From assembly GCF_011745625.1 (NCBI RefSeq), contig NW_027191492.1:1-64000 (forward strand): a stretch of DNA of 64,000 nt, given 5' to 3'. This DNA is from Cladosporium halotolerans (taxonomy: Eukaryota). Position 1 is the stretch's first letter. The number at the start of each line of letters is the position of its first letter. Below the pieces are notes generated by a model that searched no databases, had not been told where the DNA came from, and saw only the letters and a program-made list of their open reading frames with translations. Below, piece by piece: positions 6,054 through 50,842 of the stretch. The translations under genes were made by a program, and so were the position numbers.

Positions 6054-7790
6054 TCAGACATCATCCGAAGCAAGCACAGTGCCGTCGTGCGCGAGAGCAA
6101 CCTTGTGGTGGACGAGCGAAGCCTTGACCGGGTTGGGAGCCTCAAAGATCTGGTCGAGCTCCTCGAGCGTGCGGTTCTTGGTCTCGGGCATCATGAAGTA
6201 GAAGATGGTGGCCTGGACGGCGTTCCAGACGATGAAGACGATGTACGTCTTCCAACCGATCTTCTGCAGCGAGATGGGCCAGGCGAACTGGTTCAGCAGG
6301 CCGCCGGCGTTGACGGCGAGGGCGGAGAAGGCCATGCCCTTGGCGCGCATCTCGAAGGAGAGCACTTCCACGGGGTAGAGGGCTTGCAGGGGCGTGAGAC
6401 CGACGGAGTAGACGGCGCCGAAGATGAAGATCATGGCGATGGAGGCGCGCGCGGCGCTATCGTTGGTCTCGCCTGATTGGTTGAAGAGGGCGGTCGCGAT
6501 GGTCATGCCAATCCAGACGATGCAGGTTCCGGTCATGGAGAAAAGCATGAGCGGGCGACGGCCGATGCGGTCGACGAAAGCGGCACCGGTCAGGGCGAAA
6601 ACGAACTGGAAGCAGGCGTAGCCGAGGTTGATGTTGGCTTGCGTGACGCTCTCAGTGTAGCCAGCGGTGTCGAGCACGGCGGGCAAGAAGTAAGACAGCA
6701 CACCGTTGCCGGCCCATTGAGCGAAGATGGAGAAAAGAACGTTGGTCGCGATGCGGTAGCGGCTGGCGCGAGTGTTGAACAACGCGCGGTAGTCCCACCA
6801 GCGCTTGTCAGAGCCCTCCCTGCGGAATATTGTTAGTCTGGACTCGCAGTATTGAAGACGAAGCGTCAACTTACAGGTTGAGGTATGACTCGTACTCCTC
6901 GAGCTGAAGCTTGACCCAAGCCGAGTCAGGGTTTCCGTAGCCATGGAATTTGGTCAAGACGGCAGTTGCCTTCTCGCGCTTGTTGTGAACATAGAGCCAG
7001 CGAGGGGACTCGGGGATGAACCAGCCGAAGAGAATGATCAAGCCAGGGAAAAACATCTGAAGGTAGACCGGGATGGTCCAGCTGATGTTTCCCTGGAGAG
7101 TGATCGCACCGCGGATGGCGCCAGAAGCCAAGATGGAACCAGTGAACCAGAAAGTGTTGCAGTAGGCAGTGAGGATACCACGGTAGGCTGGGTGAGAGGT
7201 CTCAACGACGTAGATGGGACCTGCGGCGGAGATGATGGAGACACCGAAACCAAGCAGGAAACGACCACCCTTGAGCTGACCGACGTGGCCGTTGAGGGCG
7301 GTGGTACCGTTGATGATAGCGCCAATGACGATGAGCCATGCACCGATTTGCATGCCAATCTTCCTGCCCCAAGTATCGATAGCCGGACCAACGAAGAACA
7401 GAGCAGTGACACCGCCGATCTGGTACATGGCAGAGTTGATAGCAGCCCACGGACCGTCCTTGGTGCCGCCGAAGAAGTCAAGGAATTGCTGGTTGGCCGT
7501 CAGACCACCGAAGACGGAGCCGTCGAAGCCGTTCATGGTCTGAGCAAAGCATCCGAGAAGGATACAGCCGATGAGCTTCCACGTAGTGGCGTTCCAGAGC
7601 GGAGGAGCCTCCTTGATGAGGGCTTCGTTGTAAGCTTCGGAGCCCTTGACAACCTTGACCTCTGCAACATCGGCCTGTCAGATCTGTTAGTCGAGCCGAA
7701 ATATTCTTCAGCTGGTGAGATTGAACGTACGGAGTCCACGATCTTCTCGACCGTGGCGGTGCCTGTCTTGACCTCCTCCACAGGCGACAT
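6054..7790 (-). CDS. Sugar porter, lactose permease/cellodextrin transporter-like (2 introns)
   Basis: Motifs MNGFDGS, DTWGRK, GGRFLLGFG, PESPRWL, QWAGNG, VDRIGRR, YPVEVLSFEMRAKGMA and PETKNRTLEELD. Introns about 7675-7730 and 6822-6873. Confidence 0.93.
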
Positions 7791-14692: not shown

Positions 14693-15397
14693 TCAGCCCT
14701 CCACCGCCTTCACACCAGCATCATCCGTCACAAGCTTTGCCTCGTTGAAGTCCTCCGTCGTCGGCAGCTCGATGTGCACATTCGACGCCACCGCCATCTG
14801 CATGCTGACCTCCTCAGCCTTGACCTCCAGCACATGTCCGCCCGCCGACCTCTCATCGTTGACGAAATGCAAATGCTCGCCGGCAACGCCGAAACCCTGC
14901 CAATTGGTCGGCGTCCGGATACCGATGATCGTCCCCTCGACGTCGCGATACTCTTCCACGGACTGCTTCTTGCCCAGCTCCGACAGCGGCTCGCCCTTGT
15001 AGCTCTGCCCGCGCACTGTCCTGCACTTCAAGTACTCGAAGCGGCCGTGGATACGGTACGTCATGAAGAGGTTCTTGGCCCGGGCGTTGAAGGCGTCCAG
15101 CGCTTCGTCGATGGTCTCTTTGCGCGGTAACGCGACGGAGACGGTGTGCTGGGCTTCGAACTGCGTGCTGACGGCGAACGGAATCTGCTCGTCGGGATTG
15201 ACTTCGCGCACGTTGCCTTCGGCTTGCAGTTGGTAGATCTTGCCGTCGAGGAAGAGGAGCTCGCCGTTCATGCGTGCGAAGGTCCCGAGGCCTTGGTTGC
15301 CTTTTGATGAGAGCTTGGAAGCTGTGATACCGGTCTCGCTCACACCGTCCATGAGGGCGTTGAGGAGTGAGAATTGATAGATGTGGTTGGGCTCCAT
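14693..15397 (-). CDS. Alpha-acetolactate decarboxylase (BudA/AlsD family)
   Basis: 'IYQFSLLNALMDG', 'GNQGLGTFARMNGELLFLDGKIYQ' and the Zn-binding 'GEHLHFV...GGHV'. Intronless, 234 aa. Confidence 0.92.
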   Translation of the reverse strand: MEPNHIYQFSLLNALMDGVSETGITASKLSSKGNQGLGTFARMNGELLFLDGKIYQLQAEGNVREVNPDEQIPFAVSTQFEAQHTVSVALPRKETIDEALDAFNARAKNLFMTYRIHGRFEYLKCRTVRGQSYKGEPLSELGKKQSVEEYRDVEGTIIGIRTPTNWQGFGVAGEHLHFVNDERSAGGHVLEVKAEEVSMQMAVASNVHIELPTTEDFNEAKLVTDDAGVKAVEG

Positions 15398-15785
15398 GGT
15401 GGATGTGGATGGCGCTGTAGTGGTGTGTGAGTGTGTTGCTGTCAGTACTCCAAGAGAGAGTTGGTCGCGTTGAAGATGTTATGGCAACAAATGGAACCTC
15501 TACTTGACCTCAAAGGATCTCGAACCTAAACAATATGTACGCCACTTTGCAGACGAACTGTAAGAGCGAGGTCGAGCCGAATCGATCCGCATCGATACTC
15601 TGTTGATGATGGTATGGCCTGAGATGTGCGCCGTCGTGCTCACGAATTGCCCACTCCTCGTCAGTCCGCTTTCGTCATTGTTGATCGCAAAGGTTCGCAT
15701 ACGGACTTTGACACTCCAACTTTAACTGATCATGTAGAAAGTCACATTCTACCACCGCAGCCGATACTGGTTGCACAGAATATCG

Positions 15786-21544: not shown

Positions 21545-22037
21545 TGAGTGCAATGGATACGTCTTTCTTTGAACAAAAGTTTTAGCATTACAAAATTTAT
21601 CACAATTCATCATGGCATTGATGCGACTACAATGTGAGTGATCCATTTCGCATTTGATGTTGCCCAGCTCAGGCAAAAACGCCAAATTTTATAGCGACTG
21701 CTTTCCCCTAGTCATCACCACCTAGGGGCCCAACCGTCACTGTCTCATGCATAGTTAGAAGCGGTGATGGATGTTGCCAATTGCTAGCCATTCAGATCCA
21801 GGTAATGTGCTACCTGGTGTCTGCGCTGAACACTATCATACTTGCCGTCGGACGGGGTTCCGGGATGTGTGAAGATCCGGGTGGAGCTTCAGCCAATGGC
21901 CCCTCTCATGTTCGGCATGCTTCCCGATCATCTCTTATGTACATTTATGAATATATTACTGAAGCATCTCGTGGCAATCACGATAGTCCAAATACTGCAC
22001 TCTTTCTTTGAGTATCGTCTGGCAGATGTTCTTCGAG

Positions 22038-22990
22038 ATGGCCGAAGAGAAGCGCGCTCTGCGGTTGGCAATTCTCGGAAGTGGTGAGTTTTTTGAGGCG
22101 GACAGTGGGAGAGATATAGATTGTCATGCTTGTAACTGGTCGCTGACCAATATCTTGTAGGATTCATGGGCACATCGATCCTAAAAGGCCTACTCAACGA
22201 CAAAGGAAGGGCTTCAGATGGATTCGAACTTTCGTTCACGGCGTGCGTACGCTCGGAGGCTTCGTTGAGCCGACTCGAGCGAGCACTTGGTCCAAGTGCC
22301 AGCAAAGTCTCTTGCCACGTCGGATCATTCACCGAAGCTGCTCGTCAGTCAGATATTATCATGTTGGGTGTCCCTCCAGGTGAATTGGATGCGCTCTCGA
22401 AAATACCTGGGCTTGCAGATGTATCAAAGGGAAAGCTTATTGTCAGTCTCCTGGCAGGCGTATCTTGCAATCAGGTGGTCGTTACTTTCGCCAGAAGCAG
22501 CGGATCCAACGAAGCAGACTATCAATCGAATGTTGCACGAGTTATTCCTACGATCGCTGCTCAGGTCGGAGACTCGGTGTCACTCATCGCCGATACTGAG
22601 GGCATTTGCCCAAAGCAGCACCAATTATGCAATCAGCTATTCCAGAGGATTGGAACAACGCAACATCTCCCGGAGAACCTGATGAACAAAGCAACCGCGA
22701 CTGGTGCTGTATGTCATGCTATCGCTATTACCGCAGTCGATGCAGCAGTGGACGCAAGCGTTTCGAAAGGTCTGCCTCGAGCCACCGCTCTCAGCTTAGC
22801 AGCGAACAGCCTACGCAGCGCGGCAAGTCTACTTGGTGGCGAGATGACTCCAGAGGAGTTGAAAGCAGCCATGTCTGTACCCTCGGGAATCACGATCAAT
22901 TCGATGCTGAAGCTGGATCGAGCAAACATGCGGTATGCTGTAGAGGACACAGTTGGTGAAGCGATAGACTATGCACGTAGCATGGCCTAA
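22038..22990 (+). CDS. Pyrroline-5-carboxylate reductase-like oxidoreductase (divergent; 1 intron about 22084-22160; alternative in-frame ATG at 22026)
   Basis: Rossmann 'LAILGSG|FMGTSILKGLL', 'SDIIMLGVPP', 'LIVSLLAGVS', 'GLPRATALSLAANSLRSAASL' and 'ELKAAMSVPSGIT'. Confidence 0.85.
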
Positions 22991-23309
22991 AAATGGGAGC
23001 GCAAAGGATGCTGTTTAGGTGAGGTAGTCAGGGTATTCCAGCGGTTTCTAGAAATGACTCATTCTCGCTGTATGCCCAGATGCTCCTTCGAGCGCACCTT
23101 AGACCTTTGGATTGTTTGCAACATGCCGCAGGTAGGAATCAGAGATGAATTGAGGTCACATTGCGCGAAGATTAAGAGACAAACATCTTGACCAGGTTCC
23201 ACGTCCGGGAAGATATACAAGGGTTGTCCAATCAACTCAGCCGGGCCCCGGACTCAAGATGACCTGGGCATTTGAAAGTGCCCAGCAACGCCGCGTCGGA
23301 TGTTGGTCA

Positions 23310-23552
23310 CCTAACTTATACTTATATAATAGTAGTTACTTAGGATAATAGTCCTAATATACTACTAATAGTAAGAGCTTTTAGAACTATAGAGTTCGAT
23401 CTTAGGCTAATAATAAAGAGAAACCAAAGTTTGCTATAGCTTATTTCGTATTTATAAGTTATGAAGAAAGAAAATAGCTAGTATAAGTATATTAGCTAGA
23501 TTTCTGTTTAATCATAATATGCTAGACCAAGGCTTTATTAAATGAGCACTAC
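23310..23552. repeat. Short AT-rich RIP-degraded repeat relic
   Basis: Abrupt drop in GC with strong TpA/TAG excess and CpA/TpG depletion (ctaacttatacttatataatagtagttacttagg...). Confidence 0.75.
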
Positions 23553-25337
23553 TTAGTTATGGATACTATCGGAACGTTCTCCTCTGCAACTATTCTCCCA
23601 CACTTGAGCTAACATTGCAAGGCTGTCTGTAGTATTCCATCCAGTGGCTTGTCGAATATCCTCCAACGCTTGTTTACATGCACCCCGGATCTGCCGCTCC
23701 ACAAGGCACTGGCCAGCCGTCTCCAACAGCTGCACAGCGTTCACCCATGCAGTGCCTGTTCTGTTGGTCGCAGAGTTGGCCACGATCTTACGAGCGAGGT
23801 CTACTACTAGGGGCGACATTGACTGAAGCGTCGAAACGCGCTCGGTGGGCATAGACGGGACGCAGATGGCGTGGACCAGCGCTAAAGTGTGGTACATCTG
23901 CCAAGCTGCGGCAACAGAGCCATTGGCATAGCTGACCGCCTGGAAAGCATTTTGTGAGACAGCGCTGAGCGGTCTGCATGTCATGGGACACTCTGCCTTG
24001 TGGTGCTGAATCTGCAGGGAGAGGTAATGCCATTCAGATTTGTGCGACTCAATCAGGATCTTATTCGTAGGATGGCGGATCCGACACCCAAAGTTATGCA
24101 CGGTACCAAGAAGAAAGACGATCTTGTTGGCCCACGTGTCCAGAGTCCAGGAAGGCGGGTCTTCGTATGCTGCAGACGGAAGCCATCGAGACGTCTCGAA
24201 TGGAGTCGGCGTGCCGGAAGATAAGGAGGAGAGGATCATCATGCGGCAATATATCCAGAAACACTATGCTCGACAGTCAGCAACCTACGTCAATGTTCTG
24301 GTGTCAGTAACATACAGCTTGTGCGAGCCCGCCGGTCCGTCCGTCACAGCCTTGCGCCATCACCAGCTCACATGTCCCTTTCAGATGTAAATTCCAACTC
24401 CCGGCCTTGCTTTCAATCATCTCACAGTGTGCGATTAGTAGACAGCTGGCAAAGGTTGCTGGATCGTTGGCCCTGGTCTGCAGTTGGACCGAAAGTGTCC
24501 GCAGCGCATCGTTATAGTACGTGAGAGCATCTTCTTGGCCATTGCTTGTCACCAAGAAATGCTGTCGAGCGGCGGCGGCCAGACACGCCAGCCTCAACAG
24601 CTGATTGTTCAATGCAAGCTGTGGCACTATGTCGCTGAAGTGGCGCTTGCTGGTATCAAAAAGGTCGAACCATGGCCCTATGAATTCCACATATCTCGAC
24701 ATGTAGAATGCGTCCCTTTCGTTGGTGATTGGAGGCCCGGTGAAAAGGAGGACATCGTGAGCAGTCTCAGTTACGTCTCTAACAGGAAAAACTGAGCCTG
24801 CATGGCTAGATGGGCCTACCTGTCGGTCGGTCTCGTCATCTTGCGGCCTTCCAGTGATCGTGTACATTCGAGAGACCTGATGAGATTCATCGACAAAGCG
24901 GAGTGCCGAACTTGAGCCTGCGAAAAGGTAAGCATTGAGGCACGAAGGTGGCTGTGGATAGATGGACAAACGATCAATTTTAGCCTCGCCTGTACCTTGA
25001 CTTCGATGTTCATTATCATTTGGCTGAGCAGGTGCGCTCCATTGCAACGCCGTGAAAAGTGGAGGCTGCCCGTTGGAACATTTGCGTTTCTGGTGACGAC
25101 AATTTCGACAAGGAGCCTCATAATCACCTGTCCGTAACGCCGGTTAAATGATGTCTGAAAAAACCACACGTGATGATTGCCCTACATTTGAGATGATGGT
25201 TACGACAATGCTCGCAGGCTGTAAAGCGTCAGTGTTGTGGCCAGATCATGTGGAACTGGAGCAAGCCGACCCAGTTTGCATCTTGAACTTGGCCCCCTGA
25301 TAGGCACCTTAAGAGCGCCAGATCGCACAGGTGGCAT
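23553..25337 (-). CDS. Zn(II)2Cys6 transcription factor with fungal-specific TF (Fungal_trans_2-like) domain, 3 introns
   Basis: Splicing out 25270-25219 and 25185-25128 gives MPPVRS...KLACEHCRNHHLKCDYEAPCRNCRHQKRKC. Later 'YVEFIGPWFDLFDTSKRHFSDIVPQLA' and 'WNLHLKG'; third intron about 24315-24265. Confidence 0.9.
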
Positions 25338-25677
25338 CTTTGGCCTTTAGAAGTAAGGAGATGTGCCGTCGGTTGCTTTATGAATGTGTTGTTCAAGGCC
25401 GGATGCTAGATGAAGAATCTCCACTCCGCACATGAGGGGGCGCTTAGTCAGCAAGTTTTGACGGTCTTAAACAAGATTCTTCGGGAGACTACGGACCAGA
25501 CAGCAACATGACAGTTGATGTTTCCGTCCTACAAACTGAAACAATCGACTGCTGGCGCTTCACTTCAGGCTCGATTTTGCGAGGGGTACATGCTCGTCCG
25601 TTAGACTATTGAGATTTATGACTGCGTTCTAGCTATAATTTCCGAGGTACGTCAGGCAACCAATCCCAGCTCTGCCT

Positions 25678-27224
25678 TTATCCGCACAAAGACGGCAACA
25701 AAACCATCTCCGTCGTGCATTTGATATCTTCCTCGGGGAAGTCACCCCAGAACTGTGTTGAGAAAATCAGCTGCTTTTCAATTACCCAAGGGGTCGAACA
25801 GCCACTCACCTGTGCCACATGTTGCCGTATCCGATGGTGATTCCTACCGGGCTGCACCTGTCCGACAACACCCGGTATATCAGACTCGGTTCGACGTGGA
25901 ACGATCATTGGCCTGCCCACGAAACCTTCGCAGCCCAGAAGAGCAAAACCCAGGGCCTCTTTGGCGCCCGCCGGGATGCCAACCTCGTCAAGGAGCATTA
26001 TCTTGGTATTGGGCATCTGTTCTCGCAGGTAGTTGATAATGTTGGGATTGTACGAGCCACCGCCGCCCATATAGATCTCGTCAACACCCTCCTTAGGACC
26101 CCATCTCTTATAAGCCTCTGCGAGGGATTGTGCCGTGATACGGGTTATGGTCGCTACGCAATCTTCTGGACTGGCACCGTCTGGAAAAGTCAGCTCTACG
26201 ATCTGGTACAAGGCAAGTTACTTCACTCACTCGCCAACATCCGGTCGCAGACATCCTCAGCCATACGATCGCCGAACGTTTCTCTGCCTGTCGTTTTGGG
26301 AATGTCGTGCTGGAAGTATGGACCTCCGAGTATTTCGTCGACGATGCCCTGAGCTACCACACCCTTCGCGCCCATGGCACCATCTCTGTCATATTCCTGC
26401 TCTCCACGCGTGAAGTAGCGAACGGCCGCGTCGATGAAGACGTTACCGGGGCCTGGAATTCGAAATTGAACCGTCAGCACCCGTATGGCCAGTCCTGTCG
26501 GCACATCCATACGCTTACCTGTGTCAAAGTCATAGCAACCTTCCACATCGCCCTTGGGGAGTATGGAGAAGTTGGCGATGCCTCCAATGTTCTGTACCGC
26601 TCGATTCAGTGACGAGTGATTCAACAAGAGTGAGTCGAGCGCAGCAAACATTGGACAGCCTTGGCGTCCGAGAGCCATGTCCGAGACGCGGAAATTGCCC
26701 AGCGCCGTGGCTCCTGTCCTGGCGGCCACGATGGCAATCTCAGCCATGTCCAAGTGAGCCCGCACTTGGTCACCTTCGAACAGCTCCGGCAGCGGCAAAT
26801 GCCAGATGGTCTGACCCTGTCCGGCAATGAGGTCCACGTCTTTGCCGAGGTCGAACCCCTTGCTTTTCGCGAACGAGTGAACTGCATCAGCAATGACTTC
26901 GCCCAGCTGGATGTTCACGATCGCAATCTCCTCCGGCGTCGTCCGGTTCTCTTTGATCAATCGCAGGACCCTGTGTTTGAGCGGTTGGGGCATCGGATAC
27001 TCGCTGTAGTGAAGAAGCTGCATGTTCAAGGGTGCCAGCGGCGAATTTTGCGTAAAATGGACCAGGACAAGGTCCACGCCATCCATCGACGTGCCCGCAT
27101 TGTGACCAATCACTTTGAGAGACCTTGGGAAGCTCAAGTCAGGAAGATACGTTCGAGTATGAGAAACATTGAAAGGCAAAACTCACAGGCGAGTCCCATG
27201 GAGATTGTTCCGTGCAGCAGGCAT
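25678..27224 (-). CDS. Levoglucosan kinase / anhydro-N-acetylmuramic acid kinase (AnmK) family 1,6-anhydrosugar kinase, 4 introns
   Basis: 'GHNAGTSMDGVD', 'GQTIWH', 'FRVSDMALGRQG', 'QNIGGIAN', 'DFDTG|PGNVFIDA', 'PKTTGRETF', 'GGGGSYNP' and 'AKEALGFA'. Confidence 0.93.
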
Positions 27225-27981
27225 CTTGAGGGATGTGACCAAAGGCCTTGGAATGGCGACTGTAAACGGACAACGGGCAAAGGTGCATTGCGGCAAGTTT
27301 GGCCCGTCGGACGGAGAGGTCAAGTTATATGTCGAGTGGAGAAGCGGTGCTCGAGCTCTGCAGCGATCCGGAGTCGGTTACCATCCGAGAGCAGTCTGGC
27401 GTTGCCGACTCCAGACATTTTGCAGGGGGCAGCGGGGTCGGCTACAGCGAAGGGTCCGCCTCGAGCCGTGCGACCGATTTTCGCATGGTTCTCAAGGAAT
27501 ACGCTGCGAGATGGGCACTTGCTGCTCAGTAGTGGCTGCGAAGCGGGAACCCAGCGCACCTGAGCAAGGGGTGGGGTCGACTGGTTCAGCCGCTACCCCG
27601 GACTAGATCTCGTTTGTCCAAGGAAGGAAGCCAAGTCCGATCCCGATCCCGTCCCTGTGGTAGAGCCCTAGGAAGGCAGCCAACTCCGGGGACAAGAACG
27701 TTCACGATATTCGGTGGGTCCGCATTCAACTGCCTTCCGGGGAGGCCATGTGGCTGCTCTATGACTTCCCCACGACGCACATGGTAATGCCGAGTGGCCC
27801 GCTCTCATGCTTTACCGCATTCGTGCACACCCATTGGGTGCAGGATGGGCCTGGAGCGTTTGCAAACCACTTATAAGACTTTACTCATGTGCCTTCTAAT
27901 CAGGAGTTACGCATCCAAGTCGTTCCCACGACGACTCTCTAACGCGCAGGACCATCTTTGACATCGAACCCATCACCGAAG
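27225..27981. promoter_or_regulatory. Bidirectional promoter between the kinase and sugar porter, rich in CGG-N3-CGG motifs
   Basis: TATA-like elements at 27325-27330 (minus) and 27872-27876 (plus). CGGAGTCGG 27369, CGGGGTCGG 27433, CCGATCCCGATCCCG 27637; palindrome CCGTCGGACGG 27304. Confidence 0.55.
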
Positions 27982-29814
27982 ATGTTGAATCTTACCCCGT
28001 ACACCGCGACCATGGGTCTTGAAGGCACCCGCCTCAACCTTGCAGTGGCCGGCATCGCAGCGTGCGCTTTCTGGCTCTTCGGATACGATATGAGCGTCAT
28101 GGTAGGCTACCTCATGTCTGTGCAACGCATCAAGCTGATGTACTCGCAGGGTGGGTTGATCACCGAAGAGTCGTTCACCTCCGTGTTTCCTGAGATGAAC
28201 GACCCCAGCGTGCAAGGCATCGTCATTGCTGCGTTTGAGCTCGGAGCGTTGGTGGGAGCTCTGTCGTGCCTTGACCTGGGAGACCGCTCGGGCAGAAGGG
28301 CAACTGTTTGGCTCGGCATGTGCTTCATGCTCATCGGAGGGTGTCTCCAATGCAGCGCTTGGAAAGTTGGACAGCTGTTGACCGGACGTGTCATCAGCGG
28401 CATAGGTCTGGGACTGCAGGTACGATTTTTAATTCCTTCGTATGTGACGGCAAAGTAACGATCCATGGCAGGTTGCCACGGTTCCAGCATGGCAGTCGGA
28501 AACCGCGAAGCCTCATTCCCGTGGTAGATGGGGTAAGTAGCAGTCTGGGGATGTTGTCGCAAGCACATCACTGACCGTAATCACAGTCATGATCGAAGGC
28601 GGTCTGCAGACTTTCGGTGTGGCGTGCGGTCAGCTTGTGTCTTGGGGCTTCTTTTACGTCCGCGGTCAAGTCCAGTGGCGAGCTCCTGTCGGCATTCAGC
28701 TGTTTCCAGCGTTGATCGTATTTGTATTCATCAATTTCTTGCCGGAATCTCCGCGGTGGCTTGTCAAGCACGGCATGATCGCCGAGGTACGTCACCATCA
28801 GCACTTCGGTGCGCGAGAAGCTAATCACCTCGTAGGCTACTCACAATCTGTCTAAGCTACGAGGTCTACCGGAGGATCATCCCGAACTGCTAGCCGAGCG
28901 CGACAGCATTGTTGCATCCTTCGAGGCGCAGGCCGAGCTGACACCGTTCTCATACCAAGAACTGTTCGAAGGCGGCAAGACGAGGACCTTTTACCGCGTT
29001 GCTATCGGGCTCTTCATCCAGTCCGCCCAGCAGCTCTCTGGTATCAACATGGTTTCGACGTACGCCAATAAGATCCTGCAAGAGTCGTTCAACCTGGACT
29101 CCGGCCTCTCGCACCTCATTGCCGCCATGGGAGGTGTCGAATATGCCATTTGCTCCCTGCTGTCGGTGCTCCTCATCGAAGGACTGGGCCGCCGCAAAGC
29201 ATTCATTTTCACTGCTGCAGGAATGTCCGCCTGTTTCGCCGTCATCGCCGGTCTACTCTCGACCACAGAAAGGGCAAACAAACTTGCTGCAGCTGGCCTT
29301 CTGTTCCTGTTCAACACGTTCTTCGGGCTGGCCTGGGTCGGTGGGCCATTTCTCTACAGCGCCGAGATTGCGCCCCTTCGCTGCCGAGCTGAAGCAAATG
29401 CCATTGCTTCAGGTGGCAACTGGCTGTTCTGCTTCATTGTGGTGATGATCATTCCACCTGCATTCGCGAACATCGGATCGAAGACCGTGAGCTTTGTGCC
29501 GTCCTTGCATCCAGAACGACAAGCTGACACGAAACCAGTACATTATCTTCGCCATTTTCAATGCCCTTTTCGTGGTCATCATCTACTTCTTCCTCGTTGA
29601 GACGAGAAAGAGATCCTTGGAAGAACTCGATGTCGTCTTCGCTGCAGGTGGAAACCCGGTCTTGCAAGAAAAAAAGATGCCTCATGGTTTGAGCGTCGAC
29701 GATTCGCGCCGTATACTTGGACTGGAAGGAGTCTCCATGGACATAATGTCCGGTGCGCCGCCAAAGAACTCAGAAGATGAGACGAGGTTTGAGCACATCA
29801 GATCGAAGGACTAG
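27982..29814 (+). CDS. Sugar porter (STL1-like clade), about 5 introns; start at 27982 or 28012
   Basis: 'LFGYDMSVM', 'GDRSGRR', 'GRVISGIGLG', 'VPAWQSETAKPHSRG', 'WRAPVGIQ', 'PESPRWL', 'QQLSGIN', 'YSAEIAPLRCR' and 'VETRKRSLEELD'. Confidence 0.93.
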
Positions 29815-31291
29815 ATCAGTAGCGAGAGAGAAGGGTGCCTGCGAGAGAAGTCTTGTGGCGTCAAGCAAGATTCCTGACGGGAGACGGGTGACAGAGTAGC
29901 GAGGCTATGTCGGCCCTAAGCACCAAAAAAAAAAAAAAAGGCGGGCATCCCCTGCTGGACTACCATTCCCGAACCTCGTCGCACGCTATTCGACGTGCGA
30001 GAGTCTTCCTGTCACTGCTACCTCCAAAAGTAAGCAGCCCAGGGTTGAACCGCTGACTAATGTCTCGGTATGGAAGGACGCTTCGTCCTTGCCTTCTTCA
30101 CTGTTCCAGGCCCACGTTGACGGCGCGGGTTTCGCGTCGAGGGCGTTCGCGACGGCCTTGACGACCAAAAAGCTCGCTACGATCAAAAAGCTCCACAAGG
30201 TCATTGGCATCACCCGCTATCTGGTCATAGGTCGTGGCTTTGATCATGCCACGAGGCCAGAATCCTACATACATTTCTGATAGCCACTGGCCCGTTGAAG
30301 ACCAAATCTTTAGGACCAACTTGGATCACAGGACCGCAATTGCTCCTAAGGAATTCTAGATATATTTTGAGACCAGTCAAAGCCAGTCGATTACAGAGAC
30401 GAAATAGCTGCAAATAATGAAGGCGCAGAAAATGACCTGAGACATAGGGGATCGCGCAGGCAGATCGAATAGGTCGAATAAAAACATGTGTCACCACCAC
30501 GAACGCGACTAGGTCGTAAGCATAGAAGTATACGCCTTCATTGTGGTAGCAAGGTAAGACACAAGTTTACACGTGTGCATGCGATGAATGAGAATCTTCG
30601 GAACTCTGCCGCAGTCGGAGGCGCTCCCCGCTTCCCTAACTTACAGCAGCTTCTTTTATTGCTCTGATAAGAAGACATTCAAGGACTTAAGAATCTCCGA
30701 ACAGCCGCAGTACATCTGTCGGACAGTTGAACCCAATATCGGAATCTGCGCGGATCAAAATTGGCAAAAACATGCAACAGGCGGGATTCCCAGATGGTCA
30801 CCCACTCTAGTACTAGTCGCCCGGTTCAGTGCTTATATATGGCAGAGCGGAGGGGATACCCAGCTGTCTCTGACCTATGGCCGTATGTTCTTGCGTTGTC
30901 GTTGTAGTACATTATAAATTCCAATTTGTAAGACTCAAAATGGGCAAACCATTGGGCACACGATCAGATGACACGCGAAAACGTCCTTGTGGCTGCCATG
31001 GAGAAAATATTGAACGCGCTGACCATTCCAATGTGAAAGCGAACACTAGACATGAGGAGGTAGCGCTTTACTGTACAGTCCATGTAGCGATGCCTCATGT
31101 CTCCTGAGCTCGAATATTCATTGTTTTGGCACCCGCAAAAGTACAGTCGTGTATTCAGTCCTCCATGGACAAGATTTGTAGATGTTGGCGCATGTTTGCG
31201 TTTTACAAAAGCTGACTTTGCCGTTTGCCGGGAGTATATGCTTCAATTAAACCTCACATGCGTCGAGTTGGCTCATATATCTATCATAAGC

Positions 31292-32850: not shown

Positions 32851-34599
32851 ATTCTTTTGCTCGGTGGGTTGAAGATGCAAGGCGGAAGTGCAAGCTGCGC
32901 GATCATGGCGGACCCTTGGCGCGACGTCGGTGGAGAGCGGACATCAACTGGCGAGCGTGCTACCTCACTTTTCTTATCTCCTCCTCCCGACCTACCCTCG
33001 GGTTCCAATTTCGGCGCAATGGCCTTCATTCATGGATGTTATTCTGGTCACCCTGGAAAAGGCTGAATTCAACTCATGCAAGGTGCTGGCCACCTTCGGT
33101 TTCTGGACATGATCATACTTTCATTTTCCGGAATACGGATCTACCTCTTATACTCAAACTTAGGATGCTAGCATAGAAATTACCGTTCCACTCATCCCAT
33201 CAATCCCTCGACAAAGCTCAGAACCCCTCCTTCCTCGCCTCCGGCACAGCATCCACAGCTATTCCCCAGCGCGGAGGCGACTTGCTCCTGTCATCGCCGC
33301 GTTTCCTTTGCCCGCCACTGTTCCTCCTCTTCGGCGTTGAACCTCTGGACCAAGGACTGTCCATGAAAATTTTCGATTGCTGTCTTCTCCTCGAGATACT
33401 TCCGGACCTGGAACATAGGTGTTGAGGTTATAAAATCCTAGGTGACTACCGTCACATGAGTATGAGTCAGGTGACTAAGACGGTCGAATTCGGTCTCGGT
33501 GAAGAGGAGTGAAGAAGCGATGAAGTGATGAAGCAATAGTTCGGTGCTGTCATTTCCAAGCAGTCACTGTGAACAATGAGTTGAACACATAAGGACAGGA
33601 GTCTCCTTGGGTTCGAAGTCGGGTTTCTAAGTTACAGTGACACTCTTCATCCCGCCTGCACCGGAACGCCATAGATCATGCGCTTGTTGCCCTTTCTTAG
33701 ACCTGTCGTCCTAAGTGACTGCAATCACGTGACTGATGCTCATGTGACTGAGCAATTTCCTTGAGTGTGGAGGACTTCAGAGGGGGGTTGAGAGGAGTTG
33801 CATGTCTGTCTGGTGTACTCGATGCGACATCAGCGAGATCACTATCACCAATGCGCTTGACGCAGATCTCATGATACGTTCCCTCTCGCCAAACTACCAT
33901 ATGGAACACAACGCACTCGGGGCGCCATATGCACTGAAGCAAGGGATCACAGGCGTAACATCTAGCCATGTACGACACACGCACTGACGTGGGGTGCATA
34001 AGGCACAACGCTGTGATCCATCAGATCAGGCTCGTGACGATCTGTTAACAAATCAACACAACATCTATAATCTAGGAATCTCTCAGTGATCCAAGGCTCA
34101 ATCGAATCATCTTCATTTGCAATCTGAGCACCTGGAAATTTACAGTCAGCAACCATTCTCAGCACTTTCGAGCATTTGAAACAAAGAACCAGCCAATTTT
34201 TACTGTATATCACGATGTTGCGGCCTTGTGCTTCTACAGGCGCCAGCGAGCACCTCGGGCACTGCAAAATCACAGTGGCATCTTTATGCTCCAATGTTGA
34301 TGAGGCTGATTCTGCACTGACCGAACCGACTCAAGTCGATCGTTCTCATGAACCCAGAGTCTTCTCGCGACAAGTCTTCCAGCGGTGGCCGCGCGTCGTT
34401 TAGGTGGTCGCTCGCGACGAACTCGATGCGCCTTCTTGCCTGAGATCTCGTAGCTCTGTCGACTGCTATACAGCGATAGGTTCGTAGCCGGCACCACGTA
34501 TAGGTGGATCTCGTCGCCGACCCACAAGCGCGCTCAAGGATTTTATTCCGCCCGGCGCTAAGCACTTGAAGGGTAACAGACTATTTACGCTACATACAT

Positions 34600-36330
34600 T
34601 AGGTTTTTCCAGTCAAAAAGCCTAATAGAACCGAAAATCAATCCTCTCTAGCACTCTTTCTTATATAATATAATATATATCCTTTATTCAAATTCTTATA
34701 GTAAGTAGATAGTAGGAACTCTTAAAGCTATATATCTAAGTATTAATCGCCCTATATCTAGCGGATAAAGTAGGACCTACTATATATATTAGAGTATATA
34801 AGGTTAGTATAGTATCTAATAATTAGGAAAAAGCTAGCTAAAAGTATTAGTATTACTAGCTACGTATTATTATTTACTATCGCTTATTAGTATTATACTT
34901 GAATCTCTTAGTTAAGTAAGACGAAATAGATAATAGCTCGTACTATATCCATATCTAGCTTCTAGTCTTTAGTATCTATAATTAATTTATCTCTAAGTAG
35001 GTATATAAGACTATTTAAAAGATTATTTATACTCGTTTATATTCTAAAGATCTAGCGTTAATAACTATACTTCGTTTAATAGAATATAAAATACTCTTTT
35101 AACTCAATTACCTTACTATAGAAGCGCCCTTTTTCTAATCTCTTAGAAGACGTAATAATATTTTATATAGACTTTAATACTTCTTAGAATATATAAATCT
35201 ATATATAGATATAGTATAATATAAAACCTCCTACTATAGATTAGCGTTTATAGCTAGTAAGCGAATACTAGTATATACTTATTAGGAAGAGACTTTAGTA
35301 TAAGACTTTTATTAAATTTATTAGAAAAAAAAGCTATTTATTATAGAAATACTATATCTTCTAGGTATATTTCTAAATAGCTACTATTATACGCCTACTA
35401 TTATTATCCTTATTCTAATTATCTTTCGAATTAGTCTTCTTTTAGTATACCTAGCGTTCTTTAATCTTAGACTCCTAAGTAAGTAAATAGATATAGAGAT
35501 TCTAAAGTTCTTTTTTTTTCTACTTTTTATCTTATAGACCTAGACGATTAGAATCGTTTTAAATTATTTAATAAATAAATTATAGAAAGAAAATAAATTA
35601 TAAAAAATATATAAAATTAGCTTTATAATACAATCTATCGATTCTTTAGGAATAAAATAGAACTCTAAACTACTATAAAAAACTAGATTAATATACTTTA
35701 TAATTAGACCTTAGGCTCTAGTAATATACTTTTACTAGTTTTTAAATCTATTACGATCTAGTTTATACTCCTAAATAATAATACTATATATGCCTATAGC
35801 GTATTTAAGCTCGTTAGGTAGTAAAATAAAAATTAAAGTAGTAGTAAGAGTTAATAGACTTAATTCTAGCTTTATTAAAGTAGCTCTAGTATTTTTTTTC
35901 CTTATCTTTAGCCTTAGATTATAGAATTTCCTATCCTAGTAGTTTCGGACGAATAGGGCGTTCTTTAATTCTTCCTTATTAGAAAATAGGTCCTAAAGAG
36001 TATTAATAATAGCGTCGATCTTAAAACGGCGATACTATCTAATATAGTTATTAGGTCCTATAAAGATCTTATTAGATAAGTCCTTAGACTAGGGTTTATC
36101 GTTTATCGATATAGTAGTATAAGCTTCTAGCTTATTTAGGAGTGCTAGAAGGACTCCTAGTAGGAGAGTATAAGACTAATTTAGTTAGGCGAGCCCTAAG
36201 ACTATAAATTAGTTGAAAATAGGTAGATCCTCTACTTCTTAGAGTGAAGTTTAGATTGAGAAGGTATCTACGCTATAGAAAAGGTGATATACAGGCTTCA
36301 AATAAAGAAATACGGGAGCTCCCGCAGGTA
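34600..36330. mobile_element. About 1.7-kb heavily RIP-mutated repeat/transposon relic (class unresolved)
   Basis: Very AT-rich block with sharp boundaries, extreme TpA and TAG excess and near-absence of CpA/TpG. No ORF of 60 aa or more in the track; no TIR or LTR recognised. Confidence 0.8.
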
Positions 36331-48927: not shown

Positions 48928-50842
48928 ATGTCGACTCCCAAGCGCGACGCCGTCCACGCCGACGAGAAATCAGACCAAGACCTCAAGCACCTCGAGAATG
49001 TCGACCTCCACGACAAAGCGCTCAACGCCGGCGCGATGGAAGCGACCGCCGCAGAGCACAGCGTGGGCTTCGTCGAGGGCTTCAAGACGTACAAGCGCGC
49101 GGCGTTCTGGTCGTTCAGTAAGACCGCTCATCCATCCCACGCAGTGACCGAAAGGACGTCACGCTAACAATGCTTGATAGTCATCTCCATGACGGTCATA
49201 ATGGAAGGCTACGACGTAACCCTCCTCGGCTCCTTCTACGGCTACCCGACCTTCCGGCGCAAGTACGGCGCCTACCTCGACGCCGACAGCGGCTTCCAGA
49301 TCTCCTCCACCTGGCAGCAGCGCTTCAACTGCCTGGCGGCCGTGGCCAACATCGTCGGCGCGCTGATGAACGGCTGGGCGACGGCGCGCTGGGGCCACCG
49401 CAAGGTCCTCATCGGCAGCCTGTTCTGGCTGTCGGCGTTTATCTTCGTCGTGTTTTTCGCGCCGAACATCGAGGTGTTGCTCGTCGGGCAGACGCTGTGT
49501 AATGTGCCGTGGGGCGTGTTTGCGACGACGGGGCCGTCGTATGCGGCGGAGGTCACGCCGTTGGCTATCAGGGGGTATTTGACGGCGTATATCAATTTGT
49601 GTTGGGTTATTGGGCAGTTTTTGAGCGCGTTGATATTGAATGCGCTGGTGGATAATCCGACGCAGTGGGGGTATAGGATTCCGTTTGCGCTGCAGGTGAG
49701 GATTGAGCATCGAGTTTTTTTGTTGGTGTGGGCCAGTGACGAGATCCCGTACTGACTTCAATCCAGTGGATGTGGCCGGTCCCCCTGGCCCTGGCAGCCT
49801 ACTTCGCGCCAGAATCACCCTGGTACCTAGTCCGGCAAAACCGGCTCGAAGCTGCGAAGGCGTCGCTGAAACGACTATCAAACCCCAAGCACAACATCAA
49901 CTACGACAACGCGGTGGCGCTGATGGTGCACACGAACAAGCTCGAGGAAGAAGAGCGCGCGGGCGCGACGTACTGGGACGCTCTGCGCGGAACGAACCTG
50001 CGGCGCACGGAGATCGCGTGCATGGCGTTCATGTCGCATATCACCAATGGCGGCGCGCTGTGCTACAGTGGGAGTTTCTTCTTCCAGCAGGTTGGCATTG
50101 CGGACAATATTGCTTATGCGATTACGTTGGGCGGCAAGGGGCTGTGCTTCGTCGGGACGGTGTTGTCGTGGTTTTATATTCACCGGTTTGGGCGAAGGAC
50201 GATCTGGCTGACTGGGTTCGCGACGCTGACGGCTATTCTCTGGACGATTGGGTTCTTGTCTCTGCCGAGCCAGAACATGCCGCTGTCTTGGGGCCAGTCG
50301 CTGCTCTGCGTCGTCTGGCTTGGTGTGTACTCCATGTCTGTTGGGCCGATCGTGTACACGCTCGTGGCGGAGATTGGGTCCACGAGGCTGCGGACGCAGA
50401 CGGTCGTGCTCGGACGAAGTGTGTACTACTTTGGCAACATCATCTTCGGCGGTATCTTGCAACCGAAGTTCATGTCGCCTGGCGATTGGAATCTGAAGGG
50501 AAAGACGGTGAGTGCGATGAAATGGACAATATTACCCTCCTTCACGTCATCTGCTGACATCGCAGGCTTTCTTCTGGGCCGTACTCGCGACACTGACGCT
50601 GACTTGGGGCTATTTTCGCCTACCCGAGACCAAGGACAGGACGTTTGGAGAGATGGACATCCTGGTGAGAGCGTTCAAATTGCGGACTAACCAGTCTCGG
50701 AACTAACTCCGGTGCGCAGTTTCAAAAGGGCGTGTCGGCTCGCGACTCTGCAAAGGCCACCGTCACTGAGGAGGATGTCAACCTGACTCGGAGCGCTGCT
50801 GTCGACGCAGGGGAAGCCACGCGTGAGAAGAGTGGTAGCTGA
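48928..50842 (+). CDS. Alpha-glucoside/maltose permease (MAL11/MPH-like), about 4 introns
   Basis: 'ISMTVIMEGYD', 'FYGYPTFRRKYG', 'PWGVFATTGPSYAAEVTPLAIRGYLTAYINLCW', 'APESPWYLVR', 'GTNLRRTEIAC', 'AEIGSTRLR' and 'RLPETKDRTFGEMD'. Confidence 0.93.

Follow-up and report, generated by a model that had tools for sequence, protein, structure and literature searches.

A porter, a kinase and a Zn2Cys6 regulator form a conserved gene trio in Pezizomycotina that probably serves a 1,6-anhydro-sugar

Introduction

The sugars of biomass smoke and of fast-pyrolysis oils consist mainly of levoglucosan and its epimers. The bacterial kinase AnmK acts in peptidoglycan recycling together with AmpG and MurQ. 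In fungal clusters such as those for quinate (qa/qut) and proline (prn), an enzyme gene lies with those of a permease and a Zn2Cys6 activator.

Structures of the levoglucosan kinase (LGK) from L. starkeyi are available (PDB 4YH5, 4ZLU and 5TKR), and the R. toruloides enzyme is described as LGK-active in the accessible text of PMC9476349. According to the same text, transport limits levoglucosan use in engineered yeast and an engineered Gal2 carrier (Q341A / W455A) transports this sugar; no native transporter is named there. In the literature searched, the only levoglucosan enzyme/transporter clusters described are bacterial operons made of lgdA-lgdB1-lgdB2-lgdC and transporter genes (PMC7676230, PMC10066097). 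The literature searched contained no description of a native fungal levoglucosan transporter or of fungal uptake of levoglucosan and its epimers. In line with what the original prediction for this DNA had supposed, the searches found no fungal cluster combining kinase, transporter and regulator.

Here we analysed a locus of Cladosporium halotolerans contained in a 64,000-nt stretch of contig NW_027191492.1, referred to as the window.

Results

The locus contains four genes

Pfam profile searches and gene models located all four predicted genes, and the predicted bounds (22026 and 29814) coincided exactly with the first ATG and the last stop codon of the models (Table 1). Profile matches spanned positions 22166-22990 (P5CR_dimer and F420_oxidored, plus strand), 23553-24867 (Fungal_trans_2, minus strand), 25678-27086 (AnmK, minus strand) and 27982-29600 (Sugar_tr in three exons, plus strand).

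Table 1. Coordinates of genes and candidate regulatory features at the locus (window positions).
Feature	Coordinates	Strand	Description
P5C-reductase-like gene	join(22026..22083, 22161..22990)	+	295 aa, Pfam + homology model
Zn2Cys6 regulator	complement join(25337..25271, 25218..25186, 25127..24972, 24917..24316, 24263..23553)	-	522 aa, 5 exons
AnmK/LGK-family kinase	complement join(27224..27187, 27123..26519, 26452..26231, 26180..25810, 25752..25678)	-	436 aa, 5 exons
Sugar porter	join(27982..28101, 28150..28419, 28472..28532, 28587..28786, 28836..29486, 29539..29814)	+	525 aa, 6 exons
Kinase-porter intergenic region	27225..27981	.	757 bp between the two ATGs
CCGTCGG heptamer, candidate Zn2Cys6 site	27304..27310	+	shared k-mers, post hoc

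Transcription and splicing were confirmed for the kinase and the regulator, with RNA support for the introns of both genes; the models of the porter and the P5C-reductase (P5CR)-like gene were based on homology only. All four kinase introns were recovered with zero mismatches in a single 1428-nt RNA contig (run X4). This contig set the acceptor of intron 1, 9 nt from the initial model, and extended to position 27254, so the kinase 5'UTR measures at least 30 nt. The four regulator introns were found as joints in one 1748-nt contig from run X5; two or three of them were also present in run X7.

The layout largely followed the prediction. The divergent kinase/porter promoter, put at 760 bp, measured 757 bp from ATG to ATG, and the regulator, expected directly downstream of the kinase, started 340 bp past the kinase stop on the same strand. 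The P5CR-like gene had been described as divergent from the regulator; it lies on the plus strand, tail to tail with the regulator on the minus strand (562 bp between stops), and the two genes are therefore convergent.

The kinase belongs to a sister clade of the characterised levoglucosan kinases

The large kinase exon matched the Pfam AnmK profile (PF03702) with 169.8 bits (cut-off 24) and the C-terminal exon with 30.3 bits; the match exceeds the curated threshold along the full domain. The PDB match to L. starkeyi LGK (4YH5) had an E-value of 1.2e-78, with 51% identity, and matches to bacterial AnmK were at 3.9e-22 or weaker.

A quick tree of 45 rows placed the window kinase in an Ascomycota-only clade (clade A; 17 rows, SH-aLRT 99), sister to the LGK clade (clade B; 23 rows, SH-aLRT 82), which holds the L. 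starkeyi, Kockovaella and R. toruloides enzymes. Bacterial AnmK formed a distant outgroup on a branch of 1.55. Identity among members of the LGK clade was 72-84%, and about 50% to the window kinase. The prediction of an AnmK/LGK-family kinase thus held at the level of the family, as seen in the Pfam and PDB matches, but not for membership of the true-LGK clade. Two assignments were ruled out. The window kinase is not an orthologue of the characterised LGKs, since it falls outside the clade of every LGK placed in the tree. Nor is it a bacterial AnmK, given the distant outgroup position and a Gly-Arg pair, as in LGK, rather than Gly-Gly. Many fungi have kinases of both kinds, clade A and true LGK.

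An alignment of 16 clade-A, 17 clade-B and 12 bacterial rows contained 64 columns conserved in all three groups, including LGK D26, T116, R153, D212 and E362. The window kinase therefore has the catalytic residues of the family: D212 (AnmK D182), D26 of the GTSxDG motif and E362 (AnmK E326). T97, R129, D182 and E326 are the residues named for P. aeruginosa AnmK, their roles being those given in the available part of PMC10570956. Another 61 conserved columns were common to clade A and LGK and absent from bacterial AnmK, one of them an Arg at LGK position 161, in the sugar-contact loop, where AnmK has Gly. Between clades A and B, 24 columns were fixed differently. Ten of these lie within the 35 positions aligned to the AnmK hairpin and sugar-contact loop (LGK 115-134 and 153-167), a clustering with P 2.5e-6 over all positions and 9e-4 among conserved columns, and the window kinase lacks the LGK-typical residues in these two segments. 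This concentration of differences argues for a possible change in specificity or affinity.

The porter has co-diversified with the kinase

Three porter exons matched the Sugar_tr profile (PF00083) with 51.7, 51.8 and 78.2 bits (cut-off 22.3). They covered profile positions 4-418 of 452, and hence both halves of an SP-family transporter; full-length orthologues carry the same domain. Against the 525-aa H. werneckii protein P0121, the porter shows 97% identity. Judged from sequence, the porter belongs to a sharply bounded orthogroup: 42 of the 58 matches to exon 5 were at 62-96% identity and the next was at 42%, and a branch of 3.58 set the group apart from the nearest other porters. The two subclades of the kinase tree reappeared in the porter tree, Saitoella branching at the base of each tree; the sequences of the two genes have co-diversified.

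The regulator is a Zn2Cys6 factor

The RNA-supported regulator model encodes a C-x2-C-x6-C-x5-C-x2-C-x6-C motif at residues 24-50, spanning an intron and conforming to the Zn2Cys6 pattern (C-x2-C-x6-C-x5-12-C-x2-C-x6-8-C), together with a middle domain (Fungal_trans_2, 50.3 bits). Its orthologues carry PF00172 and PF11951, and it aligned over its full length, at 38-57% identity, to those adjoining the kinase in other fungi.

The 757-bp region is presumed to be a bidirectional promoter; its sequence contains many CGG/CCG pairs as candidate sites. The CCGTCGG heptamer found in this region recurs in the regulator 5' region (25366-25372) and upstream of the P5CR-like gene (21845-21851), so that 3 of the 11 window copies fall within the 1,578 bp of three promoters (2.5% of the window). 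Enrichment was absent across the whole window (11 copies vs 10.0 expected), and as a site common to three promoters the heptamer is a lead only.

Porter, kinase and regulator are linked across six fungal classes

The trio was linked in about 20 taxa from six Pezizomycotina classes (Dothideo-, Eurotio-, Sordario-, Pezizo-, Leotio- and Lecanoromycetes), as judged from locus tags or accessions in consecutive order, from merged gene models and from one published table, much of this synteny evidence being the order of tags or accessions together with contigs of equal size rather than DNA read directly. The three genes were consecutive or merged in Saxophila tyrrhenica (LTR77_009092 and 009093), Aspergillus lentulus (CNMCM8694_009230 and 009231), Pyronema domesticum (KAI5782905, 906 and 907), P. 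omphalodes (CCX05392-394), Sporothrix schenckii (HMPREF1624_03733-03735), Zymoseptoria tritici (ZT1E4_G1889-1891) and Z. brevis. Porter and regulator were consecutive in Diplogelasinospora and Wilcoxina, and two numbers apart in four Neurospora taxa, A. versicolor, Glonium and A. hiratsukae; kinase and porter were consecutive in Pseudogymnoascus (V500_03105 / 03104) and Pleopsidium (M1830_008308 / 008307). Merged kinase and regulator models accounted for 4 of the 23 regulator matches. Counting against close linkage, the two accessions in Aureobasidium subglaciale were 25 apart, on a contig of equal size, and in Coniochaeta pulveracea the tags were 149 apart. Carriers of the trio include post-fire Pezizales, Neurospora, Coniochaeta and rock-inhabiting black fungi.

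Gene order varied by lineage, with either the kinase or the porter in the central position, yet the linkage was kept. Because it recurs across fungal classes, adjacency of the three genes is more than chance. Linkage beyond close relatives, as in a catabolic cluster, was found for porter, kinase and regulator; it was absent in Saitoella complicata and S. coloradoensis. The original prediction had treated kinase, transporter and regulator as one unit, and had named unlinked orthologues in other genomes as the result that would speak against it; linkage in about 20 other taxa and the mirrored trees bear the unit out, Saitoella being the unlinked case.

True LGK genes showed a comparable arrangement. 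A divergent MFS/sugar-porter gene was found upstream of the kinase in all three clade-B metagenome contigs with enough flank. The MFS genes adjoining clade-B kinases did not form one orthogroup.

The P5CR-like gene is most likely a bystander

The P5CR-like protein matched P5CR_dimer (7.9e-18, 65.1 bits) and F420_oxidored (1.9e-7, 32.0 bits), both above cut-offs, and thus has the NADP and dimerisation domains of the P5CR family. The intron of the model has GT..AG borders and its reading frame is open; RNA contigs covering the locus showed no splicing of this gene. Its family is small and divergent (35 representatives at E<=1e-30), and H. werneckii also has a paralogue, 46% identical. Some relatives are fused to proline dehydrogenase, and as a group they point to proline or imine chemistry.

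The reductase had been predicted as a fourth cluster member. This part found no support: no P5CR-like orthologue was seen beside the trio anywhere, and linkage beyond close relatives was not found for this gene, which we regard as most likely a bystander. A four-gene cluster, with the reductase acting on a downstream or parallel intermediate, is an unlikely alternative for which several observations give weak, indirect hints. The gene is 562 bp from the regulator, and the heptamer is common to its upstream region, the regulator 5' region and the divergent promoter; this coincidence was noticed post hoc, and the heptamer is not enriched window-wide. A merged model in A. hiratsukae links the porter with a PrnX-like OCD/mu-crystallin enzyme, which is from another NAD(P) family but has comparable imine-reducing chemistry, and an 'NADP-binding oxidoreductase' is found one gene from the Zymoseptoria trio; at the same position, however, a second regulator takes the place of a reductase in A. 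lentulus and A. fumigatus. Furthermore, none of 80 loci searched by tblastn had a P5CR-like orthologue, the window's kinase clade being represented among them only by L006 (1,250 bp, without flanks). Fusion of relatives to proline dehydrogenase also counts against a role in the cluster, and hexose-6-phosphate, the expected kinase product, requires no reductase.

Discussion

We consider it probable that porter, kinase and Zn2Cys6 regulator make up a conserved three-gene nutrient module of Pezizomycotina for a 1,6-anhydro-sugar, a function suggested by family membership and by the conserved catalytic residues. The transport, reaction, regulation and substrate that we infer are as follows. The porter would import a 1,6-anhydro-hexose. 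Using ATP and a water activated by the conserved aspartate (LGK Asp212 / AnmK Asp182), the clade-A kinase would open the 1,6-anhydro ring while phosphorylating O6, and the resulting hexose-6-phosphate would enter central metabolism. In the presence of the sugar, the Zn2Cys6 factor would activate the divergent promoter.

Levoglucosan tentatively ranks first among the candidate substrates. It is closely followed by another anhydro-sugar (mannosan, galactosan or an anhydro-amino-sugar), because the kinase is an LGK paralogue that differs in the sugar-holding segments. Its place in a sister clade and the many genomes holding both clades make levoglucosan only one candidate, which may already be served by the other enzyme. 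A broader reading, possible but less likely than not, is that the trio is a Pezizomycotina-wide regulon for an environmental 1,6-anhydro-sugar, parallel to classical LGK. Such a regulon would provide either the true high-affinity route for smoke levoglucosan or a route for a second anhydro-sugar, as yet unrecognised. No native anhydro-sugar transporter of a eukaryote would precede its porter, and the recurrent imine-reductase-type neighbours would hint at an extra, undescribed step.

It is rather improbable that the module instead salvages anhydro-amino-sugars (anhydro-MurNAc from peptidoglycan, or 1,6-anhydro-GlcNAc/GlcN from wall turnover) and not a neutral pyrolysis sugar. Public records do label these proteins 'anhydro-N-acetylmuramic acid kinase'. 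Citing Dai et al. 2015, the available part of PMC10570956 speculates that fungi encode levoglucosan and anhydro-Mur kinases and may recycle peptidoglycan. An adjoining imine-reductase-type gene, in the window and in A. hiratsukae, would also be easier to reconcile with nitrogen chemistry than with glucose chemistry. Clade A conserves the AnmK contacts Thr97 and Arg129, but true LGK does so equally, and these residues are therefore non-discriminating. The 61 columns missing from bacterial AnmK, including the Arg at LGK 161, argue against salvage, as does the position of clade A, sister to LGK and far from bacterial AnmK. In addition, the ORFs scanned in the window included no MurQ-type etherase or GlcNAc-6-P deacetylase.

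Least probable of all is a linkage conserved without a common substrate, the porter being an ordinary hexose/polyol carrier and the kinase acting on an endogenous metabolite: the porter is labelled 'hexose carrier protein' in some sources and 'similar to STL1' in others, marine metatranscriptomes contain spliced transcripts of the kinase and the regulator although pyrolysis sugars are not expected there, and an Ophiostoma AnmK-like gene is up in mycelium vs yeast without supplied anhydro-sugar in the part of that source available, but the porter forms a distinct orthogroup (at most 42% identity to the next sugar porters) co-diversified with the kinase, the trio outlasts gene-order rearrangement and true LGK genes have the same head-to-head MFS partner.

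If the anhydro-sugar module is real, the fermentation of pyrolysis sugars could draw on a ready set of parts, a natural and dedicated porter together with its matching kinase and regulator, and the module would mark the turnover of pyrogenic carbon by fungi. Fungi have two old kinase clades, each with a transporter partner, which raises the question of whether they recognise more than one anhydro-sugar. The literature searched contained no assays of a clade-A kinase, a member of the porter orthogroup or a regulator orthologue.

Among known systems, the window kinase resembles L. starkeyi LGK in its PF03702 domain, similar length, N-terminal GTSMDG phosphate motif and general-base Asp; it differs by its place in clade A and by the 24 columns fixed differently, concentrated in the sugar-holding hairpin and loop. 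With P. aeruginosa AnmK (3QBW / 8BRE) it shares the fold family, conserved Thr97, Arg129, Asp182 and Glu326 and, as predicted from sequence, ring opening coupled to 6-phosphorylation. Unlike AnmK, which it matches in PDB only at E 1e-12 to 1e-22, it has, as do the other fungal enzymes, an 8-residue hairpin insert and Gly-Arg in place of Gly-Gly, and AmpG and MurQ have no counterpart in this module. The lgd operons, as described in the available parts of their sources, are prokaryotic, comprise other protein families and proceed by oxidation, elimination, hydration and reduction, without a kinase. Similarly to the qa/qut and prn clusters, the locus combines an MFS permease, a pathway enzyme, a putative pathway-specific Zn2Cys6 factor and a presumed divergent promoter; it differs from them in substrate class and enzyme family, and in having a single enzyme. 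Finally, the window porter is an SP-family protein like Gal2 Q341A / W455A and would perform the same step, anhydro-sugar uptake; the Gal2 variant is an engineered hexose carrier, whereas the window porter would be a natural, dedicated one.

Architecture of the locus and gene models

Exon models were drawn by eye from the sequence and then checked by script; introns across the window were short and of the GT..AG type. Pfam searches confirmed all four families named in the original prediction, a P5C reductase-like (P5CR-like) protein, a Zn2Cys6 regulator, a kinase related to levoglucosan kinase (LGK) and bacterial anhydro-N-acetylmuramic acid (anhMurNAc) kinase (AnmK), and a sugar porter. As predicted, the kinase and porter genes were head to head, and the regulator was found directly downstream of the kinase. 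The P5CR-like gene had been described as divergent from the regulator; the coordinates and strands show that the two are convergent. The kinase exon displayed 97% identity to Hortaea werneckii proteins. The porter model reached the same level against an H. werneckii protein and, at 525 residues, equals the annotated H. werneckii protein P0121 in length. These identities place the source of this fungal sequence in H. werneckii or a very close relative (Dothideomycetes, Mycosphaerellales). The genes flanking the locus, encoding a CobW-type GTPase and an amidase, look unrelated to it.

Gene and spacer coordinates at the locus
Feature	Position	Strand	Remarks
P5CR-like gene	22026-22990	+	Pfam and exon model
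Regulator	25337-23553	-	tail to tail (convergent) with P5CR-like gene
Kinase	27224-25678	-	same strand as regulator, 340 bp upstream
Divergent spacer between kinase and porter			757 bp
Porter	27982-29814	+	Pfam and exon model

Neither a second regulator nor an LGK of the clade containing the characterised enzymes (clade B, see below) was found within the 64-kb window. Two more Sugar_tr genes are present in the same 64 kb (6054-6953, minus strand; 49740-50690, plus strand). Given how common such genes are in the window, being neighbours would count for little if there were no cross-species data. Other features were recorded in the window. An alpha-acetolactate decarboxylase ORF was detected at 14693-15478 on the minus strand (Pfam E 1e-77); this family is mainly bacterial, so the ORF is a possible old gene transfer. 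GC content, 0.49-0.61 elsewhere, decreased to 0.32 in the stretch 34001-36000; a decayed repeat or another AT-rich remnant could explain this. A run of approximately 16 A at 29925-29940, about 110 nt past the porter stop codon, was 4 letters shorter in one DNA-like contig.

RNA contigs support the kinase and regulator models

A single 1428-nt contig from sequencing run X4 (25613-27254, zero mismatches) skipped all four kinase introns, and a 1748-nt contig from run X5 (23568-25379, 95-99% alike) skipped all four regulator introns. The X4 contig placed the acceptor of kinase intron 1 at 27124, giving the N-terminus ...LSLKVIGHNAGTSMDG, in agreement with orthologues. One RNA-supported intron splits the Zn2Cys6 motif of the regulator. 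The RNA contigs cover neither the porter nor the P5CR-like gene, which has no bearing on the expression of these genes. Run X1 was unspliced and behaved like DNA. A genuine kinase-regulator fusion protein was ruled out by the stop codon, the 340-bp spacer and the presence of the two genes on separate RNA contigs.

Kinase intron 2 (26453-26518) is 66 nt long, in frame and stop-free. Two public H. werneckii proteins, P0001 and P0002, retain it as 22 extra residues; their annotation is probably wrong at this position, because the RNA contigs splice the intron out. Two runs filed as marine metatranscriptomes, X5 and X7, contained spliced transcripts of the kinase and the regulator with 95-99% identity to the window (23568-27254), indicating that a close relative of the window fungus is transcriptionally active there.

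Porter, kinase and regulator are linked across fungi

Gene positions in other fungi were deduced from locus tags and accession numbers, from the names that proteins carry in public records and from merged gene models. Matching "longest contig" lengths and the order of the numbers served as positional proxies for DNA that was not read directly. By these measures, the trio was consecutive in Pyronema domesticum (KAI5782905, 906, 907), P. omphalodes (CCX05392-394) and Sporothrix schenckii (HMPREF1624_03733-03735). In Saxophila tyrrhenica, a merged kinase and regulator model (LTR77_009092) adjoins the porter (LTR77_009093), and in Aspergillus lentulus CNMCM8694_009231 (kinase and regulator) adjoins CNMCM8694_009230 (porter and a second regulator). 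Table 1 of PMC7317419 lists an AnmK, an MFS sugar transporter and a transcription factor side by side in Zymoseptoria tritici (ZT1E4_G1889, G1890 and G1891) as bystanders of another cluster, and the trio likewise in Z. brevis. Pairs of genes were also linked: porter and regulator were consecutive in Diplogelasinospora and Wilcoxina, their numbers differed by two in A. hiratsukae, A. versicolor, Glonium stellatum and four Neurospora taxa, and kinase and porter were consecutive in Pseudogymnoascus and the lichen fungus Pleopsidium. Merged kinase and regulator models accounted for 4 of the 23 regulator matches, their kinase part being 75-80% identical to the window and their regulator part 45-57%. 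Three taxa provided counter-examples: Saitoella (Taphrinomycotina) has both genes, but on separate contigs, the accessions of Aureobasidium subglaciale differ by 25, and the tags of Coniochaeta pulveracea differ by 149. The order of the trio varies by lineage, yet the three genes remain together.

This cross-species synteny ruled out chance adjacency of the trio. Apart from the orientation of the P5CR-like gene, the original observation was confirmed, and the three genes proved to be a genuine, conserved module.

Seven models from other fungi (P0138, P0141, P0179, P0192, P0196, P0198 and P0413) merge neighbouring cluster genes, as kinase and regulator, porter and second regulator, or porter and PrnX-like enzyme, and one regulator (P0188) carries the name "anhydro-N-acetylmuramic acid kinase". 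Such merged or misnamed models are useful as synteny evidence and misleading as annotation.

The porter and the kinase diversified together

Searching longer proteins with porter exon 5 returned 58 matches, 42 of them at 62-96% identity, followed by a drop to 42%. A quick tree was built from the window porter and 29 of these 58 matches, excluding unnamed rows and redundant strains. The porter orthogroup was separated from the nearest porters by a branch of 3.58 and divided into two subclades, each with a support of 98, Saitoella being basal. In the protein atlas the porter matched nothing more specific than Sugar_tr clusters; one named after STL1 ranked 15th.

Of the 45 rows in the kinase quick tree, one was the window, 36 were named proteins out of 120 listed, 3 came from metagenomes and 5 were bacterial AnmK; unnamed rows were excluded. 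It resolved two fungal clades. Clade B, whose members are 72-84% identical among themselves, held every LGK that could be placed (L. starkeyi, PDB 4YH5; Kockovaella; R. toruloides) as well as Pezizomycotina members; the R. toruloides enzyme has clear LGK activity according to PMC9476349. Clade A (SH-aLRT 99) consisted of the window and Ascomycota only, and no characterised member was found in it. Both clades were present in Aspergillus, Penicillium, Aureobasidium, Exophiala and Saitoella. Clade A divided into two subclades matching those of the porter tree, with Saitoella basal again, indicating that porter and kinase diversified together.

The LGK of L. starkeyi (Saccharomycotina) nests among Tremellales (Basidiomycota), and neither the kinase nor the porter branching follows class boundaries in the subclade that contains the window. 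Horizontal transfer or poor resolution of the quick trees could account for both observations.

Clade A appears to differ from clade B in the sugar pocket

The LGK structure is reportedly described in Bacik 2015. AnmK contacts, from Table S2 of PMC10570956, served here as a proxy for levoglucosan-contact residues; in that source, a hairpin (residues 96-110) and the Arg129-Val143 loop hold anhMurNAc. Alignment columns were compared between 16 clade-A, 17 clade-B and 12 bacterial rows, excluding the partial protein P0061, the basal P0088, P0092, P0093 and the metagenome rows. Conservation in all three groups was found for 64 columns, including the catalytic Asp, and a further 61 were common to clades A and B without AnmK. 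Another 24 columns were fixed differently between clades A and B, and 10 of these fell within the 35 positions aligned to the hairpin and loop, where 1.9 were expected (P 2.5e-6, or 9e-4 among conserved columns only). Clade A has therefore kept the chemistry, whereas its sugar pocket appears to be altered.

A reductase that is a probable bystander

The family of the P5CR-like protein is small and divergent, and it includes fusions with proline dehydrogenase, which point to imine or proline chemistry. Exact-sequence look-up of representatives returned names only from unrelated species and one H. werneckii paralogue. Two observations hint at membership of the reductase in the cluster. In A. hiratsukae, the porter is merged in one model with a PrnX-like OCD/mu-crystallin enzyme, which has chemistry similar to that of the window protein but belongs to a different NAD(P) family and shares no sequence similarity with it. 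The heptamer CCGTCGG is common to the region upstream of the P5CR-like gene, the 5' region of the regulator and the divergent promoter; these are 3 of the 11 copies in the window, in 2.5% of its length, a pattern noticed post hoc, and the heptamer was not enriched over the whole window. CGG/CCG and CreA-type motifs (consensus SYGGRG) were also catalogued in the divergent promoter, with no control set. The proposed four-gene cluster held for the trio, which is linked across taxa by tags, accessions and merged models, but not for the reductase, for which no positional evidence was found elsewhere and which is probably a bystander.

A candidate anhydro-sugar uptake system and its parallel in clade B

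It is a well-founded inference that the trio forms an anhydro-sugar uptake and activation system. Since the kinase is related to LGK as a paralogue and not as an orthologue, the substrate may be levoglucosan or another anhydro-sugar. The original prediction knew of no described fungal cluster of such a kinase with a transporter and a regulator. Our literature search, with subscription papers mostly outside its coverage, likewise found no description of this cluster, nor of a native fungal levoglucosan transporter or regulator; within the literature searched, the three-gene module is undescribed.

A metagenome scan retained 80 loci: 71 bacterial-type AnmK (33-38% identity), seven clade B, one divergent and a single clade-A locus (L006), 1,250 bp long without flanks. 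Three of the seven clade-B loci (L002, L007 and L008) had an upstream flank of at least 1.8 kb, and all three carried a divergent MFS or Sugar_tr gene upstream of the kinase, L008 additionally carrying a Zn2Cys6 factor. These MFS genes do not form one orthogroup and are 25-28% identical to the window porter over the main aligned stretches. In these three clade-B (LGK) loci, the kinase is therefore head to head with a transporter, as in the window, and the recurrence of this design supports the reading that kinase and transporter share a substrate.
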